Part shown: one piece after another, positions 3,890 to 55,616 of the stretch
Layout: every line of letters starts with the position of its first letter
Position numbering within the stretch: position 1 is the stretch's first letter
NCBI RefSeq assembly: GCF_019635935.1
Contig: NZ_JAHBYN010000001.1
Span: 2,507,532-2,571,531 of the forward strand
Reading direction: 5' to 3'
From: Parvibaculum sp.
GTDB taxonomy: Bacteria > Pseudomonadota > Alphaproteobacteria > Parvibaculales > Parvibaculaceae
Length of the DNA stretch: 64,000 nt
Notes under the pieces: generated by a model
The model's input: only the letters and a program-made list of their open reading frames with translations
What the model was told of the DNA's origin: nothing
Database searches by the model: none
Position numbers and translations under genes: made by a program

Positions 3890-5416
3890 ATGAGCCTCTC
3901 CCTCTATACGCTGATCGAATCGTCCTTCCCCGACGACCGCACGCGCCTTGCCCTTGAGGTGCCGGGCCGCACCCATGGGCCGCGCGACTGGTCCTTCGAT
4001 CGCCTGTCCGCCTATGCCGCGCGCTATGCAGCGCTCTTTGCGCAGCTTGGCCTGAAGCCCGGCGACCGCATTGCCCTGCAGGTCGAAAAGTCGCCCGAGG
4101 CGCTGGTGATCTATCTGGCCTGTTTGCGTGGCGGCTTCGTGTTCCTGCCCATGAACACCGCCTATCGCGTCGAGGAGGTCGACTATCTCGTCGGCGATGC
4201 CGAGCCCGCTCTGATCGTTTGCGACCCCGCGGTGGAAACCGCCATCGCCGACATCGCCGCGCGGCGCGGCGTGCCGCATCTGCTGACGCTCGACGCCGAC
4301 GCGCATGGCAGTTTCATTGACGCGGTCGCGACGGTTGCGGATGCTGTGCGGCCTGCCACCTGCGGCGCGGAGGATCTGGCGGTCATTCTCTATACGTCGG
4401 GAACCACCGGAAAGCCGAAAGGCGCCATGCTGACGCATGGCAATCTCGCGGCCAATGGATTGGCGTTGCGCGACGCCTGGCGTTTCACCGACGCCGACGT
4501 GCTGCTGCACGCCCTGCCGATTTTCCATGCGCACGGGTTATTCGTCGCCTGCCATTGCGCGCTTCTGTCGGGCGCGAAAATGATCTGGCGGCAGAAATTC
4601 GACCGCGCCGACGTGATTGCCCTGTTGCCGCGCGCCACCACTTTCATGGGCGTGCCGACCTTCTATACGCGCCTGCTCGCCGGGGACGACTTCAATGCCT
4701 CGCTGGTCGGCCATATGCGTCTGTTCACCTCCGGTTCCGCCCCCTTGCTCGCCGAGACCTTCGAGGCGTTCCGGGCGCGCACCGGTCATGCGATCCTTGA
4801 GCGCTACGGCATGACCGAGACCGGCATGAACACATCGAACCCCTATGACGGCGAACGTCGCGCCGGCACGGTTGGCTTTCCGCTGCCGGATGTCGAGCTG
4901 CGCGTGACGGACGAGGAAGGCCTGCCGCGCGCCTCCGGCGAGATCGGCGGCCTTGAGGTGCGCGGCCCCAATGTCTTTTCCGGCTATTGGCGGATGCCCG
5001 AAAAATCGGCGGCCGAGTTTGCGGAGGGCGGCTGGTTTCGAACCGGCGACATCGCAATGATCGACGCCGACGGCTATGTGCATCTGGTCGGCCGCGCCAA
5101 GGACCTCATCATCTCCGGCGGCTTCAACGTCTACCCGAAGGAGATCGAGGAGCTGGTCGACGACATGGCCGAAGTTCTGGAATCGGCCATCGTCGGCGTA
5201 CCTCATTCCGATTTTGGCGAGGCAAGTGTCGCGGTGGTCGTGCTGCGCGAAGGCGCGGCGCTCGATGAGGCGGCGCTCATTGCGCGGTTGAGGGAAAAGA
5301 TCGCCAATTACAAGGTGCCGAAGCGGGCCTTCTTCGTCGAAAGCCTGCCGCGCAACACCATGGGCAAGGTTCAGAAAAACCTGCTGCGCGAGGACTACAA
5401 GACGGCCTGCGCCTGA
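3890..5416 (+). CDS. matB: Malonyl-CoA synthetase (MatB-type acyl-CoA synthetase)
   Basis: YTSGTTGKPKG AMP-binding loop, LPIFHAHGLF, ILERYGMTET, GRAKDLIISGG, LPRNTMGKVQK. Confidence 0.88.
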   Translation: MSLSLYTLIESSFPDDRTRLALEVPGRTHGPRDWSFDRLSAYAARYAALFAQLGLKPGDRIALQVEKSPEALVIYLACLRGGFVFLPMNTAYRVEEVDYLVGDAEPALIVCDPAVETAIADIAARRGVPHLLTLDADAHGSFIDAVATVADAVRPATCGAEDLAVILYTSGTTGKPKGAMLTHGNLAANGLALRDAWRFTDADVLLHALPIFHAHGLFVACHCALLSGAKMIWRQKFDRADVIALLPRATTFMGVPTFYTRLLAGDDFNASLVGHMRLFTSGSAPLLAETFEAFRARTGHAILERYGMTETGMNTSNPYDGERRAGTVGFPLPDVELRVTDEEGLPRASGEIGGLEVRGPNVFSGYWRMPEKSAAEFAEGGWFRTGDIAMIDADGYVHLVGRAKDLIISGGFNVYPKEIEELVDDMAEVLESAIVGVPHSDFGEASVAVVVLREGAALDEAALIARLREKIANYKVPKRAFFVESLPRNTMGKVQKNLLREDYKTACA

Positions 5417-5419
5417 ACG

Positions 5420-5950
5420 TCAGCTCTTGCGATCGGCTTCGCGGCGCTTGACCGGCGCCTTGCCGTCGCGGCGGCGGCGGTCGGGCCCGGTGAATTCCGC
5501 CGAGCGCACGATTGCGCGGGGCCGGGTCAGAACCGTCTCGATGCGGGTTGTCAGCTGCTGCGCCGAGAAGGGCTTGGAAAGAATTTCGGTTACGCCCGCG
5601 TCCCGCGCCGCGATGATCGCGCCGCGCTCGCGCTGCTCGGTCACATAGATGACCGGAATGGTGCTGAGTTCGCTTTCGTCGGCGGTCCGAATGGCGCGCA
5701 CGACGGAGAGCCCGTCAAGCGGCGGTTCGAGATCGTCCATGATCGCCAGATCGACCTTGCCGCGCATCAGCGCGCCCAGCGCTTCTTCGCCGGAGCGAAC
5801 GCTTGTTATGTTGCGAACGCCGAGGCCCGACAGGATGCCGCGCAGCAGGTTGGCCATGTACTGCGTGTCTTCGACGATGAGCACGCCCAGCTGTGCGTAT
5901 CGCTCGGGGCTGATGGTCTTGGTATCCGGCGCCGTGTTGTCCTGTGCCAT
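5420..5950 (-). CDS. CheY-like response regulator with C-terminal Arg-rich extension (Cle-type)
   Basis: REC residues ED, D (IMDD), T and KP are present; tail EFTGPDRRRRDG matches [Y/F]xGPx[R/K]R. Confidence 0.85.
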   Translation of the reverse strand: MAQDNTAPDTKTISPERYAQLGVLIVEDTQYMANLLRGILSGLGVRNITSVRSGEEALGALMRGKVDLAIMDDLEPPLDGLSVVRAIRTADESELSTIPVIYVTEQRERGAIIAARDAGVTEILSKPFSAQQLTTRIETVLTRPRAIVRSAEFTGPDRRRRDGKAPVKRREADRKS

Positions 5951-9765: not shown

Positions 9766-10592
9766 GTCCGTTGTTCCTCCCCGCGCCGCGCGCTGCCTGA
9801 AAACGGATTGACGAGGCTCCAGCCGAGACCGGCCGGCGCGGGCGCCGGAAAATCCGCAAGCCCGATCCGCATGGCGTCGTGACCGTCGCGCGGTTGTGCG
9901 CGATAGGTGCCGAACACCCGATCCCAGAGCGAAAGGCTGAAGCCGAAATTCATGTCTTGTTCGTCCCGATGGATCGAATGATGCACCCTGTGCATATCGG
10001 GTGTCACGACGGCGCGCCTCAAAATCCGGTCGGCTGCGACAGGCAGCCGCACATTCGAATGATTGAACATCGCCGCCGCGTTGAGCAGCACCTCGAACAG
10101 GATCACCGCAACGACAGGCGCACCGATCAGCGCGACCGCCGCGATCTTCACGCCCATGCTGATCAGGATTTCGACCGGGTGAAAGCGGATGCCGGTCGTC
10201 ACGTCGAGTTCGGGGTCGGCATGGTGCACCCGGTGCAGCCGCCACAGGAAACCGACATGGTGGAAAACGACATGCTGGCCATAGATGAGCGCGTCGAGCG
10301 CGAGCATCGAAAGGGGGACGGCGATGATGGCCGGCGTCTGCGTCCAGTTGAAGAGCCCGAAGCCGCGCCGTTCCGCTTCCACGGCCGTCGCCGCCGCAAC
10401 GACCGGCAGCGCAATGCGCACCAGCACGGCGCCGAGCGCCGACAGGGCGATGTTGGTCGGCCAGCGCCGCCACCGCGTCAAGGCTTGCGGCCGGCGCGGC
10501 GCGGCCAGCTCCCAAAGCGCCATCGCCGCCAGCACCGCCGCAAAGGCGGCAAGCCGGACTTGGGGTTCGTGGGTCGACAGAAATTCGGTCAT
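9762..10592 (-). CDS. Sterol desaturase / fatty-acid hydroxylase family protein
   Basis: His boxes QHVVFH, HRVHH, FNHSN, HRVHH; NFGFSLSLWDRVFGT. Confidence 0.9.
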   Translation of the reverse strand: MTEFLSTHEPQVRLAAFAAVLAAMALWELAAPRRPQALTRWRRWPTNIALSALGAVLVRIALPVVAAATAVEAERRGFGLFNWTQTPAIIAVPLSMLALDALIYGQHVVFHHVGFLWRLHRVHHADPELDVTTGIRFHPVEILISMGVKIAAVALIGAPVVAVILFEVLLNAAAMFNHSNVRLPVAADRILRRAVVTPDMHRVHHSIHRDEQDMNFGFSLSLWDRVFGTYRAQPRDGHDAMRIGLADFPAPAPAGLGWSLVNPFSGSARRGEEQRT

Positions 10593-10771
10593 ACGCCTCG
10601 GTTTGGTCCTGCGCGGGCTTTCGGACCGCGAAAAGGCCCCGCACAATGGGTCCCGTGCGGATGGCAACTATAGTGGCGCTTTGTCATCAAGAAAAAGGGC
10701 GCGTTGCCCGGCATTGAGATAAAATGGCGGCACGGGACCGGGATATACGGGGTTCGGAAGGGACGGCGGCG

Positions 10772-11563
10772 ATGCGTGGCGGTGTGTGGTCTGCTTGCTT
10801 GATTTTGATGCTCGCCGCGGCGCCCGCCGGGGCCGAACCGGCGCCGGACGGCGGTCCGGGCATGACCGCGGAACGGGATGGCGCGGGCGGCCGGGCGTTC
10901 GAAGCGCCATGGGGCCGGGCGCCGGCGGAACCTTCCGTCGCCGGAGACGAGACCTTTCAAGGCGGCTTCAACTGCCGGGCGCCCGCAAGCGCCGCGGGGT
11001 CCGGGCCGATCGTTTGCCAGAGCCGGATCAATCCGGTCCTGCCGGATTTCCTGTTCAGCTTGCGCTGGTATCTCGATCCTGAGACCGGCGAACGCGTCGT
11101 CACCGGCATTTCGATCCGCCGCGAAGGCCGGGCCGAACCGTTTCAGGTGATTGCCGGCCTTGAGGCGCGCACCGCGCCGGAAATCGCCGATGGCGGCTTC
11201 GAGATCATTGACATGGATTTCGACGGCTATCTCGACATGCGTCTCATTGCCGGGGGAACGGCCGGGCCGAACATGCTCTACCGCAACTGGCTCTGGGTCG
11301 CCGACAGCGGCCGCTTTGTCGAAAGCGCCATGCTCGACGAAATCGTCACGCCCGAATTCGATCCGGAGACGCGGGAGATCGTCAGCCGCTGGCGCTCAAG
11401 CGCAGCGGAGGGCGGCGTCGACGTTTATACTTGGGACGATGGCGTGCCGGTCATGATCCATCGCGAGGTCGACCGTTTCGACGGCCCCGCGCGCTGCACC
11501 CGCACGTTTTTCGACCGCATTGACGATGAAATGCGCGAAACCGGATCGGGCGCCTGTTCCTGA
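10772..11563 (+). CDS. Secreted hypothetical protein, XAC2610-related-like
   Basis: Signal peptide; DMDFDGYLD Ca-loop-like motif followed by WLW…F…FDPETREI. Confidence 0.55.
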   Translation: MRGGVWSACLILMLAAAPAGAEPAPDGGPGMTAERDGAGGRAFEAPWGRAPAEPSVAGDETFQGGFNCRAPASAAGSGPIVCQSRINPVLPDFLFSLRWYLDPETGERVVTGISIRREGRAEPFQVIAGLEARTAPEIADGGFEIIDMDFDGYLDMRLIAGGTAGPNMLYRNWLWVADSGRFVESAMLDEIVTPEFDPETREIVSRWRSSAAEGGVDVYTWDDGVPVMIHREVDRFDGPARCTRTFFDRIDDEMRETGSGACS

Positions 11564-20802: not shown

Positions 20803-21153
20803 ATGCCAAAGCCCGTCATCTATCACAATCCGCGCTGCTCGAAGTCGCGCCAGACGCTGGCCTTGCTGGAAGAAAACGGTCACGCGCCGAAGGTGATCGA
20901 GTATCTGAAAGAGCCGCCCACCGCCGCCGAGCTTCAGGCGATCCTGAAGAAACTGAAAATGAAGCCGCGCGATCTCATGCGCAAGGGCGAGGACGTCTAC
21001 AAGTCGCTCGGCCTCGACAACGAAAAACTCTCCGACGACAAGCTGGTCAAGGCGATGGTCGAAAACCCGATCCTGATCGAACGCCCCATCGTCGTCGGCG
21101 GCGCAAAGGCGAAAATCGGCCGCCCGCCGGAAAGCGTGCTTGATCTTTTCTAG
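20803..21153 (+). CDS. arsC: Arsenate reductase (glutaredoxin type) / ArsC family
   Basis: IYHNPRCSKSRQTL, NPILIERPIV, IGRPPE. Confidence 0.92.
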   Translation: MPKPVIYHNPRCSKSRQTLALLEENGHAPKVIEYLKEPPTAAELQAILKKLKMKPRDLMRKGEDVYKSLGLDNEKLSDDKLVKAMVENPILIERPIVVGGAKAKIGRPPESVLDLF

Positions 21154-52170: not shown

Positions 52171-53133
52171 ATGTCAGGCAGCAATCCGTTCGACCCGAAG
52201 CTCTACACCGCCGATGCCATTTCGGCCGAAACGAAGGCCATCAACGACGCCATTATCAAGGCAATGGACGGCGCGCCCGACTGGTGGGACATCGGCGCAC
52301 AGGAAGTGCGCGACGCGCGCGCCCGCGGCGACGGTCCCTTCCCGCTGGCGCCGAAATCGCCCCGCGCCCGCACAATTGAGATAGATGGCAAGGGCGGCAA
52401 GATCGCGCTGCGCGTTATCGCGCCCGACAATCCGAAAGGCGTCTATCTGCATATTCACGGCGGCGGCTGGACGCTCGGCGCCGCCGACCAGCAGGACCCG
52501 CTGCTCGAGCGCATCGCGGACAATGTCGGTCTTGCCTGTGTCAGCGTCGAATACCGCCTGGCACCGGAACATCCCTATCCGGCGGGCCCGGACGATTGCG
52601 AAGCGGCGGCGGTCTGGCTGGTGAAAAACGCGAAGAAGGAATTCGGCACCGACAAGCTGACCATCGGCGGCGAAAGCGCCGGCGGGCACCTGTCGGCCGT
52701 CACGGTCCTGCGCATGCGCGACCGTCATGGCTACACCGGCTTCAAGGGCGCCAATCTCGTCTTCGGCGCCTTCGACATGTCGATGACGCCGAGCCAGCGC
52801 GCCTTCGGCAACGAACGCCTGATCCTCCGCACGCTCGACATCCAGAAATTCGGCGACGCCTTCATGCCGCCCCATGTCGACCGGCGCGACCCCGATGTCT
52901 CCCCCCTTTATGCCGACCTCAAGGGCCTCTGTCCGGCGCTCTTCACCGTCGGCACGCGCGACGCCCTGCTGGACGACAGCCTGTTCATGTACACGCGCTG
53001 GATCGCCGCCGGCAACGAAGCCGAACTCGGCATCTATCCGGGCGGCGCCCACGGCTTCGTCGCCTTCCCCGGCGAACTGGCCCGCGCCGCCAACGCTCAG
53101 GCCGACGCCTTCCTGAAGCGCGTGGTGGGGTAG
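52171..53133 (+). CDS. Alpha/beta hydrolase (HSL family esterase)
   Basis: [30 protein letters not shown]. Confidence 0.92.
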
Positions 53134-53188
53134 TTGATTTGCTGTCGATTCGGTGTCCCGTACTCAGCTAGGTCGAGAGGAGTGAGCG

Positions 53189-54010
53189 ATGGAGACAACG
53201 GAGAAAATCGTTGAAGCCTATGTACGCTATGTACGGCACTGGGCAACCATTCCGAATGTCCGGTGCGACGGGCAGCAAGAGATTGACCTCATCGCTGTCG
53301 ATCCAACTTCCGGAAAGCACTATCACATCGAAACTAGCGTTTCTGTGTCGCAGGGCTTTTCTAAGCTCACGGCGAAGACGTTCGATCCTGAGCTGAGGAA
53401 GCAGCGCGTTCACCAAGCGTCGATGCGCCGTACCTTAGGCTTTTTCGTCGATCACAAGTTTGGCACAAAGGCAGTCAAGGATAAGCTCGCGAAGTATGGT
53501 TTTAGTGAGAGCGACAACCACAAGATCATCGTGACGTGGGGCTGGACAGAAGATGCCAAGACGGCTGCCAAAATCGCAGGAATTGAACTTTGGGATTTCA
53601 GAGAAATAATTCGCGACATCGCGTCCGAAATTCGAGACGCGAGGAGCTATTTCACTGACGACACGCTCCGCACGATCAATCTTTATGTGCAGGCGACGGA
53701 GGGAGCGGCCCGGAGCATACGTACTGCCTCCAACCCACAAGAATTCGGGCGTCGAGCGCCGGCTCGGGTGATCGACAACCAGAAGAATTCCGCACCATTC
53801 TGGGTTTACCGCAACTCAGTCGTTCGACGCGCGCGACTGCATCGCGCCGCCTGTACCTATTGCAACGATGGTGCCGGAATGCACAGGGTTGGTAGCAGGT
53901 ACAACGACGAATGGAGGCCGTTCGCGAGTGAACGGGACGCCAAAGCGTTTCTTGCATCCACCGGATACGACGACGCAAAGAACTGCGGCGTTTGCATGGG
54001 GCCGCGCTAG
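53189..54010 (+). CDS. Putative PD-(D/E)xK (Mrr-like) nuclease fused to an Ada-like Zn-binding domain
   Basis: GAGGAG RBS; EIDLIA…HIETS; KIIVTWGWTEDAKTAAKIAGIELWD; C-terminal LHRAACTYC…FASERDA…CGVC. Visibly AT-richer codons than flanking genes. Confidence 0.65.
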   Translation: METTEKIVEAYVRYVRHWATIPNVRCDGQQEIDLIAVDPTSGKHYHIETSVSVSQGFSKLTAKTFDPELRKQRVHQASMRRTLGFFVDHKFGTKAVKDKLAKYGFSESDNHKIIVTWGWTEDAKTAAKIAGIELWDFREIIRDIASEIRDARSYFTDDTLRTINLYVQATEGAARSIRTASNPQEFGRRAPARVIDNQKNSAPFWVYRNSVVRRARLHRAACTYCNDGAGMHRVGSRYNDEWRPFASERDAKAFLASTGYDDAKNCGVCMGPR

Positions 54011-54068
54011 CACCCTGGAACCGCTATGCCTTAGTTTTGGCTAGCCTTATCGGTCCAGCCTCTATAAT

Positions 54069-54097
54069 TTGAACAATGTTCATAAATTTGATATTAA
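54069..54097 (+). promoter_or_regulatory. Promoter (TTGAAC-N17-TATTAA) with TGAACA-N-TGTTCA operator
   Basis: Perfect 6-bp inverted repeat at 54070-54082 ahead of the crotonase-TetR operon; TATAAT also at 54063-54068. Confidence 0.6.
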
Positions 54098-54129
54098 TTC
54101 AATAAATCATGAAAGCCCGGGAGGAAGCC

Positions 54130-55008
54130 ATGCCCTTCGAGCACATTCTCTATGAGCGGCAGGGCCGCATCGCCACCATCACGCTGAACCGCCCCGACCG
54201 CCTCAACGCCATAGCCGCCGGCATGCCGCGCGAGCTCGCCCGTGCCGTCGAGCAGGCGAACGACGATGACGACGTGCACGTGATCGTGCTGACCGGCGCC
54301 GGCCGCGCCTTCTGCGCCGGCTACGACCTCAAGGACTTCGCGGAAACCCCGGCGCGCAATCAGGGCGCGGGCACACCGGCGGGCGATCCGCGTCCCTGGG
54401 ACCCGATGGTCGACTTCAACATGATGCATGCCAACACGCGGGACTTCATGTCGCTCTGGCGCTGCCACAAGCCGACGATTGCCAAGGTGCGCGGCTTCGC
54501 GGTGGCGGGCGGCTCCGACATCGCGCTTTGTTGCGACATGGTGGTGATGGCGGAGGATGCGAAGATCGGCTATCCGCCGGCGCGCGTCTGGGGCTGCCCC
54601 ACCACCGCCATGTGGGTCTACCGCCTCGGGCCCGAACGCGCCAAGCGCATGCTCTTCACCGGCGATCTCGTGACGGGCGCCGAGGCCGCCGAAATGGGCC
54701 TCGTCCTCGAAGCGGTGCCGGACGACGATCTCGATGCGCGGGTGGAGGCGCTCGCGGCCCGCATGGCCGGTGTGCCGCGCAACCAGTTGATGATGCAGAA
54801 GCTGCTGGTCAATCAGGCCTATGAAAACATGGGGCTGCAGACGACGCAGATGTTCGCGACGCTGTTCGACGGCATCACCCGCCATTCGCCCGAGGGCGTC
54901 TGGTTCAAGCAGCGCGCCGAACAGGTCGGCTTCCAGCAGGCGGTGAAGGAACGCGACGGCGACGCGCCCATCGCCGACGGCGTTTCGCGCCCGACCTGGA
55001 AATTCTGA
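54130..55008 (+). CDS. Crotonase/enoyl-CoA hydratase family protein (atypical catalytic residues)
   Basis: ITLNRPDRLNA, FCAGYDL, AVAGGSDIAL, IGYPP; GGAGG RBS. Confidence 0.9.
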   Translation: MPFEHILYERQGRIATITLNRPDRLNAIAAGMPRELARAVEQANDDDDVHVIVLTGAGRAFCAGYDLKDFAETPARNQGAGTPAGDPRPWDPMVDFNMMHANTRDFMSLWRCHKPTIAKVRGFAVAGGSDIALCCDMVVMAEDAKIGYPPARVWGCPTTAMWVYRLGPERAKRMLFTGDLVTGAEAAEMGLVLEAVPDDDLDARVEALAARMAGVPRNQLMMQKLLVNQAYENMGLQTTQMFATLFDGITRHSPEGVWFKQRAEQVGFQQAVKERDGDAPIADGVSRPTWKF

Positions 55009-55616
55009 TGCAGGCGGCTACCGCATCCGGCAAGCGCCGCACGGCCCTGCGCGATCACAAGCGCAAGGCGATCCTCGCCGCCGCGCGCCGCGTCTGCGAT
55101 GCGGGCGGGCCGGAGGCGCTGACCATCCGCGCCGTCGCCGCCGAAGCGGGCTATGTGCCGGGCGCGGTCTATTCCTATTTCGCCGGTATCGACGAGCTTG
55201 CCATCGCGCTCACCGCCGAGGAACTCGGGCATCTCGCAAGGCGCATGCGCGAGGCGGCCGAAAAGGCGAAGTCGCCCGCCGATGCGCTCGCCGCCGCGGC
55301 GCGCGAGGCGCTGGCCGCCACCGCCGGCAACGCGCCGCATGTGCGCCTCGCCGGGCGGTTGATGTCGGCCGGCGCGCTCGATCCCGATCTCAACCGCGCC
55401 GTCACCGGCCGCGTCATCGCGGTGCTCGAAACGCTGGGCGGGCCCTTGCGCGCCGCGACCGGCCTTGAAGGTGCGGCCGCCCACCGCGAAATCCTCTGCC
55501 TCGCCGCCTTCCTGATCGGCCTGCGCGTGCTCGAAGGCTCGGGCCGTCTGGAAGCATTGGGTTTCGCTGCGGAAACCTTGCTGGCGCACCGCCTCTCCGC
55601 GCTCCCGGGTGCATGA
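55008..55616 (+). CDS. TetR family regulator
   Basis: ILAAARRV…LTIRAVAAEAGYVPGAVYSYF; TGATG overlap. Confidence 0.88.
   Translation: MQAATASGKRRTALRDHKRKAILAAARRVCDAGGPEALTIRAVAAEAGYVPGAVYSYFAGIDELAIALTAEELGHLARRMREAAEKAKSPADALAAAAREALAATAGNAPHVRLAGRLMSAGALDPDLNRAVTGRVIAVLETLGGPLRAATGLEGAAAHREILCLAAFLIGLRVLEGSGRLEALGFAAETLLAHRLSALPGA

Follow-up and report, generated by a model that had tools for sequence, protein, structure and literature searches.

A gene that has visibly come from elsewhere, stands alone and carries no named domain raises the question of what it does in the genome that houses it. Such a gene, here called gene X or simply X, is the open reading frame (ORF) studied in a 64-kb stretch of Parvibaculum DNA, to which we refer as the window. 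The original prediction, drawn from the sequence alone, took X for an Mrr-like nuclease fused to an Ada-like zinc finger and for an undescribed one-gene defence system recognising modified DNA. Our analysis revealed that the X family is undescribed in Pfam, NCBIfam and PADLOC and is sporadic yet very conserved across bacteria and archaea. Its predicted fold and its gene neighbourhoods point to an accessory defence nuclease against phages or mobile elements, either embedded in another defence system or standing alone, and we give this explanation about an even chance of being right. The element and its gene are laid out as follows.

53134-54068, strand not applicable: variable, horizontally acquired segment of 935 bp with gene X as its sole content (GC profile; alignments with the sister contigs L097 and L099; sister gene maps).
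53175-53182, plus strand: Shine-Dalgarno-like GAGAGGAG, 6 nt before the ATG (direct sequence reading).
53189-54010, plus strand: gene X, 273 amino acids (aa) and a stop codon, intact, with all family-invariant residues kept (ORF list; 838 homologues; alignment).

The ORF is delimited by an ATG at 53189 and a TAG at 54010. Because the N-terminus, METTEKIVEAY, is near-invariant over more than 800 homologues, the start codon is secure, and X has a predicted ribosome-binding site of its own.

A Pfam scan of X at E up to 10 gave only CagZ (E 0.17), and no usable match was obtained from NCBIfam, PADLOC-DB v2.0.0 or a sequence search of the Protein Data Bank (PDB) with whole X; the matches sought in vain in Pfam, NCBIfam and PADLOC include transposase, integrase and metabolic families. 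That no model in these three collections matches X bears out that it is undescribed there. In a large protein collection we found 838 homologues, which either lack a name or are labelled 'hypothetical' and are all devoid of Pfam domains, with the closest at 61% identity, and a profile search of a library clustered at 50% gave 1505 representatives at E up to 1e-3. Scanning one genome per species over 185,579 species yielded 104 relatives, from which 80 loci were kept as the genome context set. These loci belong to Alphaproteobacteria, Dehalococcoidia, Planctomycetota, Acidobacteriota, Verrucomicrobiota and other bacterial phyla, and among archaea to ANME-1 (Methanophagales), Altiarchaeales and Bathyarchaeia, with 45-67% identity to X of the window. 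The usual family member is a single domain of 170-190 aa (about 175) without a zinc module. Among the 80 genome loci, the form of 260-285 aa with the C-terminal extension seen in the window is restricted to Alphaproteobacteria; other members carry alternative C-terminal extensions, including DUF7662 or other small domains.

The evidence for a defensive role comes from the genomic context. The original prediction had proposed the neighbourhoods of homologues as a check, and these show a strong association with defence loci, namely Type III, Type I and Type ISP restriction-modification (R-M) systems and a GmrSD/McrB island. ORFs within 5 kb of X were clustered across the 80 loci, and genes upstream of X were counted over the 69 loci with at least 1.5 kb of upstream DNA. 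In 12 of these 69, a same-strand gene stops 0-31 nt upstream of X and encodes a protein of about 1000 aa, or less where a contig or ORF is truncated, and 8 of the 12 loci encode a second protein, of about 950-1000 aa, on the 3' side. The former is the Type III restriction subunit Res (ResIII, RE_endonuc) and the latter the Type III methyltransferase Mod (N6_N4_Mtase; PADLOC MTase_III PDLC03632, more than 1000 bits). In complete maps, the genes next in line after res-X-mod are those for SLFN_AlbA_2 and an integrase in one case and for a UvrD helicase in another, and the res-X-mod arrangement is found in 5 of the 11 two-domain genome loci. One res-X-mod operon belongs to a cultured strain, Rhodovibrio sodomensis DSM 9895 (L013/L095). 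The Res of X-bearing operons keeps its own PD...EVK nuclease motif. Beyond Type III systems, the Type I subunit HsdR is associated with X in three loci, a Type ISP enzyme lies 47 nt upstream in one, a large serine recombinase is found near X in four, and one close two-domain homologue resides within an island of integrase, resolvase, GmrSD and McrB genes. In a neighbour-joining tree, the R-M-embedded copies are scattered and form no single clade. The family thus includes copies placed between genes of a defence system on the same strand (the 12 res-X-(mod) loci), whereas the copy of the window is solitary.

The position between res and mod was then viewed from the side of the methyltransferase. 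A scan of metagenome contigs with a Mod alignment gave 80 loci of the same Type III lineage (L105-L184), 72 of them with res upstream, and X was present in 0 of these 72 operons. This absence, combined with the nuclease motif in Res itself, led us to reject the idea that the Type III enzyme has X for a third, core subunit. The distance between res and mod is below 100 nt in 42 of the 72 operons, and 0.3-3.9 kb of other DNA separates them in the remaining 30. Ten inserts of the junction were scanned, with the following content.

res|mod insert: Bro-N/PDC-S13, a cluster of 7 loci.
res|mod insert: DUF4062 with HATPase_c_4, 6 loci.
res|mod insert: YhcG/DUF1016 PDDEXK nuclease, PDC-S02, 3 loci.
res|mod insert: Fic/SoFic, 2 loci.
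res|mod insert: ORF6N/PDC-S05, 2 loci.
res|mod insert: RecD-like PDC-S68.
res|mod insert: GmrSD-like protein.
res|mod insert: PDC-S11.
L144:499-1209, plus strand, and L146:4960-5697, minus strand: two res|mod inserts without a Pfam or PADLOC match.

Since 30 of 72 operons that lack X carry an insert there, the res|mod junction of this lineage serves as a slot for accessory defence cargo, and X is among the genes that use it. As a separate observation, the same slot holds a 227-aa protein at L007:6302-6985 (plus strand), a further unannotated candidate like those of L144 and L146. Some X loci also have an extra gene between X and mod; at L022:11241-11987 (plus strand) the protein in that position looks NYN/LabA-like by eye, so that this operon has two tandem cargo genes. 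'Embedded' defence genes have been described by Payne et al., who found phage protection by 7 of 9 tested candidates and whose 145 untested candidates became PADLOC PDC models; their large survey of embedding was devoted to Hma, BREX, DISARM and Type I R-M rather than to Type III (bioRxiv 10.1101/2024.01.29.577857). X resembles such embedded genes (PrrC in EcoprrI, BrxU and PDC-S families such as YhcG/DUF1016) in being a small same-strand cargo between restriction-system genes. It is unrelated to them in sequence, however, and sits in Type III systems, and the copy of the window is itself not embedded. The family thus behaves like embedded defence candidates, of which many are already known, but forms one that is uncatalogued.

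Whether X could act as a nuclease depends on its N-terminal part, for which we derived the following features.

53189-53728, plus strand: N-terminal PD-(D/E)xK fold domain, aa 1-180 (AlphaFold2 (AF2) model; Foldseek against PDB and BFVD; conservation over 95 sequences; AF1548 hidden Markov model alignment).
53213, 53285 and 53330, plus strand: putative metal-binding residues E9, D33 and E48 (conservation; AF1548 alignment).
53336, plus strand: canonical Lys position, S50 in X of the window (conservation over 95 sequences).
53456, plus strand: K90, conserved basic candidate together with R80 and R81 (conservation over 95 sequences).
aa 157-161, plus strand: conserved D157-D158-x-x-R161 motif in the C-terminal helix of the N-domain (conservation).
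53729-53797, plus strand: variable, low-confidence linker, aa 181-203 (predicted local distance difference test (pLDDT) below 50 at aa 184-198; unconserved columns).

The AF2 model, built on a 44-sequence alignment, has a pLDDT of 87 and divides into an alpha/beta domain (1-180) and a small C-terminal domain, joined by a disordered linker (184-198). Its predicted core elements (helix 4-15, strands 19-25, 31-37 and 44-50, then strand 110-116, helix 121-129 and strand 132-136) and the Foldseek results show the alpha-beta-beta-beta-alpha-beta core of the PD-(D/E)xK superfamily. The best PDB match is NucS (2vld; E 2.6e-4, probability 1.0), followed by EndoMS (5gke), and further matches of the N-domain are Card1, MspJI, R2 endonuclease domains, MunI, Cdn1, LmuA and SfsA. 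Against viral models (BFVD), the annotated matches read restriction endonuclease, Mrr-domain, RecB-family, VRR-NUC and PD-(D/E)XK. Given the PDB and viral matches, the nuclease fold is well supported, with NucS rather than Mrr as the closest structural match. The PD-(D/E)xK fold foreseen for this half of the protein is therefore upheld, and the motifs quoted for it and for the C-terminal half are all present (E5/E9, E31-I-D33, E48-T-S50, KIIVTWGW and GIELWD; H218-x3-C222-x2-C225, F-x-S-x3-A and C266-x2-C269). Their description as typical of Mrr_cat found no backing, as the Pfam scan gave no match to that family (PF04471). The broader label 'Mrr-like' survives at the level of the superfamily only; the sole sequence hint to the Mrr class is AF1548 (1y88), the one weak but positionally sensible match of a PDB profile search with the N-domain (E 0.29).

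Over 95 sequences, the residues conserved at 90-100% or nearly so are E5, E9, T20, N23, E31, D33, H46, E48, R80, K90, D157, D158 and R161. Among them, E9 is found in 94, D33 in 93 and E48 in all 95 sequences, and K90 in 90 with Arg in 4 more. The weak AF1548 alignment sets E31-I-D33 and E48-x-S50 of X on EID and E-C-K, so D33 and E48 correspond to the canonical acidic pair and residue 50 to the canonical Lys site. This site is occupied by Gly in 52, Ser in 32, Thr in 4 and Arg in 4 of the 95 sequences. The Ser noted in place of the usual Lys was thus read correctly for the window, and proves to be a family trait, with Gly or Ser in 84 of 95. The signature of the PD-(D/E)xK superfamily has an Asp where beta2 begins, an Asp or Glu in beta3, often also a Glu in alpha1, and a Lys two positions past the acidic residue of beta3. 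By its modelled fold and its acidic residues, X falls within this superfamily; the lysine that would complete the signature is missing. A relocated basic residue may stand in for it, and from the conservation pattern we infer K90 as the best candidate, followed by R80, R81 and position 44. In X of the window, residue 44 (53318-53320) is His where 91 of 95 sequences have Arg or Lys, on the same face of beta3 as H46 and E48, and residue 110 is Asn where 80 of 95 have Tyr. H44 and N110 may be lineage-specific changes near the predicted active site.

The family-wide replacement of the (D/E)xK lysine by Gly or Ser is also what one would expect if X were a catalytically dead adaptor or regulator on a nuclease scaffold, binding DNA or protein, for instance as a modulator of a neighbouring R-M enzyme. 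This idea is also in line with the very small size of X, with the extreme conservation of its surface (D157-D158-x-x-R161 helix included), as in interaction modules, and with the tight coupling to res, whose product has a nuclease motif of its own. However, the conservation of E9, D33 and E48 at 98-100% is hard to explain without metal binding, and most X copies have no R-M partner to regulate. Moreover, BamHI and BglII are active PD-(D/E)xK enzymes without the canonical Lys. We regard a dead adaptor as rather improbable.

The structural matches to NucS and EndoMS suggest yet another function, that of a NucS/EndoMS- or Vsr-type repair endonuclease for mismatches or methylation damage that travels with methyltransferases, as Vsr travels with Dcm. 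X adjoins and couples with a DNA methyltransferase operon in 12 loci, and it shares with NucS/EndoMS (2VLD, 5GKE) the PD-(D/E)xK core and acidic residues on alpha1, beta2 and beta3. NucS/EndoMS, however, consists of an N-terminal DNA-binding domain and a C-terminal nuclease with a D-E-K site, and is a lineage-wide, vertically inherited repair gene. The fold of X begins at residue 1 with no DNA-binding domain before it, lacks the catalytic Lys, has a 60-residue helical insert between beta3 and beta4, and matches no NucS model in Pfam. The gene itself is sporadic, horizontally transferred and absent from sister genomes; it occurs in only 104 of 185,579 species genomes, is missing from 72 of 72 sampled operons of the same methylase lineage, and most copies have no methylase nearby. 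A repair enzyme is thus very improbable.

The C-terminal part of X forms a second unit.

53798-54007, plus strand: C-terminal His/Cys4 predicted zinc module, aa 204-273 (invariant residues; AF2 of the domain alone; Foldseek; stand-alone and tandem forms).

Modelled alone, the module reaches a pLDDT of 86 and shows the order beta-beta-[H218, C222-x2-C225]-loop-beta-alpha-beta-[C266-x2-C269]. Y207, H218, C222, C225, G228, G230 and W242 are invariant, and C266 and C269 are conserved at 90% or more. Most often the module makes up a small protein of about 71 aa by itself (P0390-P0454), with no family assignment, and it also occurs in 2-3 tandem copies (P0199, P0220, P0229, P0268); P0199 has three copies ahead of a hydrophobic stretch, which reads as a membrane segment, and an SH3_3 domain. 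The separate Cys-rich module proposed for this half of X is thereby substantiated, as an independent and mobile domain. Beside this, several records of the Joint Genome Institute (JGI) call small module proteins 'F-type ATPase subunit beta', which looks like a mis-annotation. A further observation concerns L100, where a 71-aa stand-alone module gene and a PaREP1-domain gene (5001-5690) lie within a suf (Fe-S assembly) operon, between an ABC ATPase gene and a second SufB/D-type gene, with the appearance of a two-gene insert.

The kinship of this module with Ada is less clear. The top PDB match of the isolated module is the methylated N-Ada/DNA complex 1u8b_A, and this match is not significant (E 0.85, probability 0.23, template modelling (TM) score 0.41, root-mean-square deviation 4.2 over 74 columns). 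Alignment by hhalign with a provisional E. coli N-Ada sequence gave a probability of 0.8%, a comparison of 26 domain sequences with PF02805 at E up to 10 yielded no match, and a PDB profile search with the C-domain retrieved no Ada chain and only collagen NC1 noise. Sub-threshold matches to DUF6233 came from 8 of the 26 module sequences; for DUF6233, as for DUF7662, no papers were found. The Ada N-domain has a Cys4 zinc site, Cx3C...CxxC, whose first Cys is the methyl acceptor. The module of X is like it (PF02805, 1U8B) in its four Cys in two knuckles, its element order and its F...A...CxxC tail. It departs from Ada by CxxC in place of Cx3C, by one additional invariant His and by a loop insert of 14 residues. 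'Ada-like' therefore holds as a reasonable structural lead, not as an established relationship.

These comparisons decide how far the original prediction can be followed in its mechanism, by which X would be a Type IV modification-dependent enzyme whose N-Ada-homologous zinc module reads modified DNA and directs an Mrr-like nuclease. N-Ada with DNA is indeed the single best PDB match of the isolated C-domain and shares the order beta-beta-Cys knuckle-beta-alpha-CxxC; MspJI and Mrr-type nucleases are among the fold matches of the N-domain, and in other operons the res|mod slot is taken by modification-dependent enzymes of the GmrSD type. Mrr_cat and Type IV proteins (Mrr, MspJI 4F0P, AF1548 1Y88) belong to the same superfamily as X, and MspJI and viral Mrr-type proteins match its fold. 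Type IV enzymes join a reader for modified DNA, such as a winged helix or SRA domain, to the nuclease. X differs from them in that no reader domain precedes its nuclease fold, which opens the protein and is followed by the small zinc module; this 70-aa module is its sole extra domain, which most family members do without. The Ada match is not significant at the values given above, eight module sequences lean weakly to DUF6233 instead of PF02805, and the first knuckle (CxxC with an invariant His) is not that of Ada (Cx3C). Furthermore, the module is also seen without the nuclease, by itself, repeated 2-3 times in tandem or as part of a membrane/SH3 protein, and this wide distribution argues against a dedicated reader of the DNA backbone. 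A modification-dependent enzyme of this type is accordingly improbable, and membership of X in Mrr_cat, NucS or Ada_Zn_binding cannot be demonstrated.

How X came to lie in the Parvibaculum chromosome is evident from its composition and from sister genomes. The GC content of the X segment is 0.52-0.58 against 0.65-0.73 in the flanks, and the GC content at third codon positions (GC3) of X is 0.635 against 0.81-0.89 in five neighbouring genes, in agreement with the foreign composition and deviant codons ascribed to it. The window has only two GC dips, the X segment and a much weaker one at 20803-21153 (GC 0.57). Upstream of X lies an Abhydrolase_3/BD-FAE esterase gene (52171-53133), 97-78% identical to proteins of Parvibaculum metagenome-assembled genomes and P. 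lavamentivorans DS-1; downstream lie an ECH_1 enoyl-CoA hydratase (ECH) gene (54109-55008), a TetR gene and thioesterase genes. X is solitary between the esterase and ECH genes, as had been claimed, and no Res, Mod or HsdR homologue was found anywhere in the window. In DNA alignments, homology to two sister Parvibaculum contigs (L097 and L099) stops at the esterase stop codon, 53133, and restarts at TTGAACAATGTTCA, 54069, which delimits the variable segment as 53134-54068; the interval originally marked, 53134-54060, is nearly the same. L099, with a 93% identical esterase, has 140 bp (4967-5106) and no gene between esterase and ECH, its slot being filled by about 86 bp of GC-rich spacer that includes a hairpin. 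L097 (4978-5579) and L098 (97% identity) carry a HigB-like toxin and an HTH_3 antitoxin in the same slot, on the opposite strand. The island borders have no direct or inverted repeats beyond chance length, no recombinase and no tRNA. X is thus confirmed as a solitary, foreign, horizontally acquired single-gene cassette, and the esterase|ECH slot is a small cargo hotspot without a visible recombinase.

This mode of insertion raises the possibility that X is a selfish gene of the homing-endonuclease or addiction type, without benefit to the host, which would spread by cutting alleles that lack X or persist by post-segregational killing, R-M operons and hotspots being merely permissive sites. Such a gene could well appear as a single-gene island without recombinase or flanking repeats, as X does, and some intergenic insertions of X leave gaps of only 1-4 nt (L062, L019). 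Its distribution, sporadic (104 matches in 185,579 species genomes) and yet at 50-60% identity across phyla and archaea, its R-M-embedded copies scattered over the tree and the addiction module HigBA in the same slot of a sister strain point the same way. So does the only contig with an X homologue in IMG/VR, L104 (IMGVR_UViG_3300015615_000642), where the genes for the large terminase (GpA) and the portal protein flank a 58% identical two-domain homologue (10001-10828) of opposite orientation; the place between these two genes is a classic site of free-standing homing endonucleases. (A ParB_N-N6_N4_Mtase gene is likewise found on this contig, which is that of a lambda-like phage or prophage.) Like the free-standing homing endonucleases of phages, X is a single gene without recombinase between conserved genes, sporadic yet conserved. 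Unlike them, it lacks a conserved homing target in its flanks, since nearly every locus has other genes beside X; only res|mod recurs, and there many unrelated defence candidates land as well. In addition, X is translationally coupled with res in several phyla, no antitoxin-like partner is present, and the shuffling of its C-terminal domains is more typical of defence effectors. A purely selfish gene is in our view unlikely.

Several observations weigh against an accessory defence nuclease. PADLOC has no model that matches X, no X homologue was found among PLSDB plasmids or INPHARED phages, and none of the 72 sampled operons of the same Mod lineage contains X. The immediate neighbours at the 80 genome loci are mostly unrelated to defence, and several copies lie among metabolic genes, at least two of them close two-domain homologues. 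No RNA runs containing the X sequence were found; the runs with the sequence are DNA or untyped, several being labelled as activated-sludge or sludge metagenomes. Since the canonical Lys is absent throughout the family, nuclease activity would not be assured, and a nuclease without a cognate methylase requires a rule to tell self from non-self.

With these points in mind, we propose a putative model for the action of X as a defence nuclease. X would be a divalent-metal-dependent DNA endonuclease, in which E9, D33 and E48 bind the metal and a relocated basic residue replaces the Lys. It would attack invading DNA or the DNA of the infected cell itself, working alone or alongside an R-M system. 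Its target would be a structure or state, not a sequence protected by methylation, so that self and non-self could be told apart by DNA structure (as for NucS), by modification or by a phage trigger. The C-terminal His/Cys4 zinc module would be an optional add-on for targeting or regulation. A bolder version combines this model with the modification-dependent one: the core of about 175 aa would be a self-sufficient, lysine-less immune nuclease that recognises a state of DNA (structure, or backbone or base modification) and not a sequence, and the zinc module of the alphaproteobacterial fusion would be a true N-Ada-type module, very divergent, sensing an altered DNA backbone. X would then be a new kind of modification- or damage-sensing one-gene restriction system or, alternatively, a guard set off by inhibition of the Type III enzyme around it. 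The identity of 50-60% between Alphaproteobacteria and ANME-1 or Altiarchaeales would in that case be explained by the reading of a universal feature. This combination has, in our estimate, only a slender chance.

Some features of the window lie outside these questions. The scan for promoters and terminators found no promoter 5' of X and no terminator, the single match falling inside the ORF; X may be transcribed by read-through from the esterase gene. The right border of the cassette is marked by the following landmark.

54069-54082, strand not applicable: palindrome TTGAACAATGTTCA, before the ECH-TetR operon and outside the cassette (conserved in the window, L097 and L099).

The palindrome lies about 40 nt 5' of the ECH start codon, is common to all three Parvibaculum contigs, and is a possible operator for the TetR regulator whose gene (55008-55616) belongs to that operon. 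At the second GC dip (20803-21153, plus strand) there is a 116-aa gene, whose translation by eye resembles the ArsC/Spx family.

In summary, more than 800 'hypothetical proteins' can now be annotated with a family name and a genomic context. If X is a working defence nuclease, it would add a very small (about 175 aa), widespread and unannotated module to the prokaryotic immune repertoire, extend the idea of the embedded defence gene to Type III R-M operons, offer a test case of PD-(D/E)xK catalysis without the canonical Lys, and draw attention to a new stand-alone His/Cys4 zinc module without family assignment.

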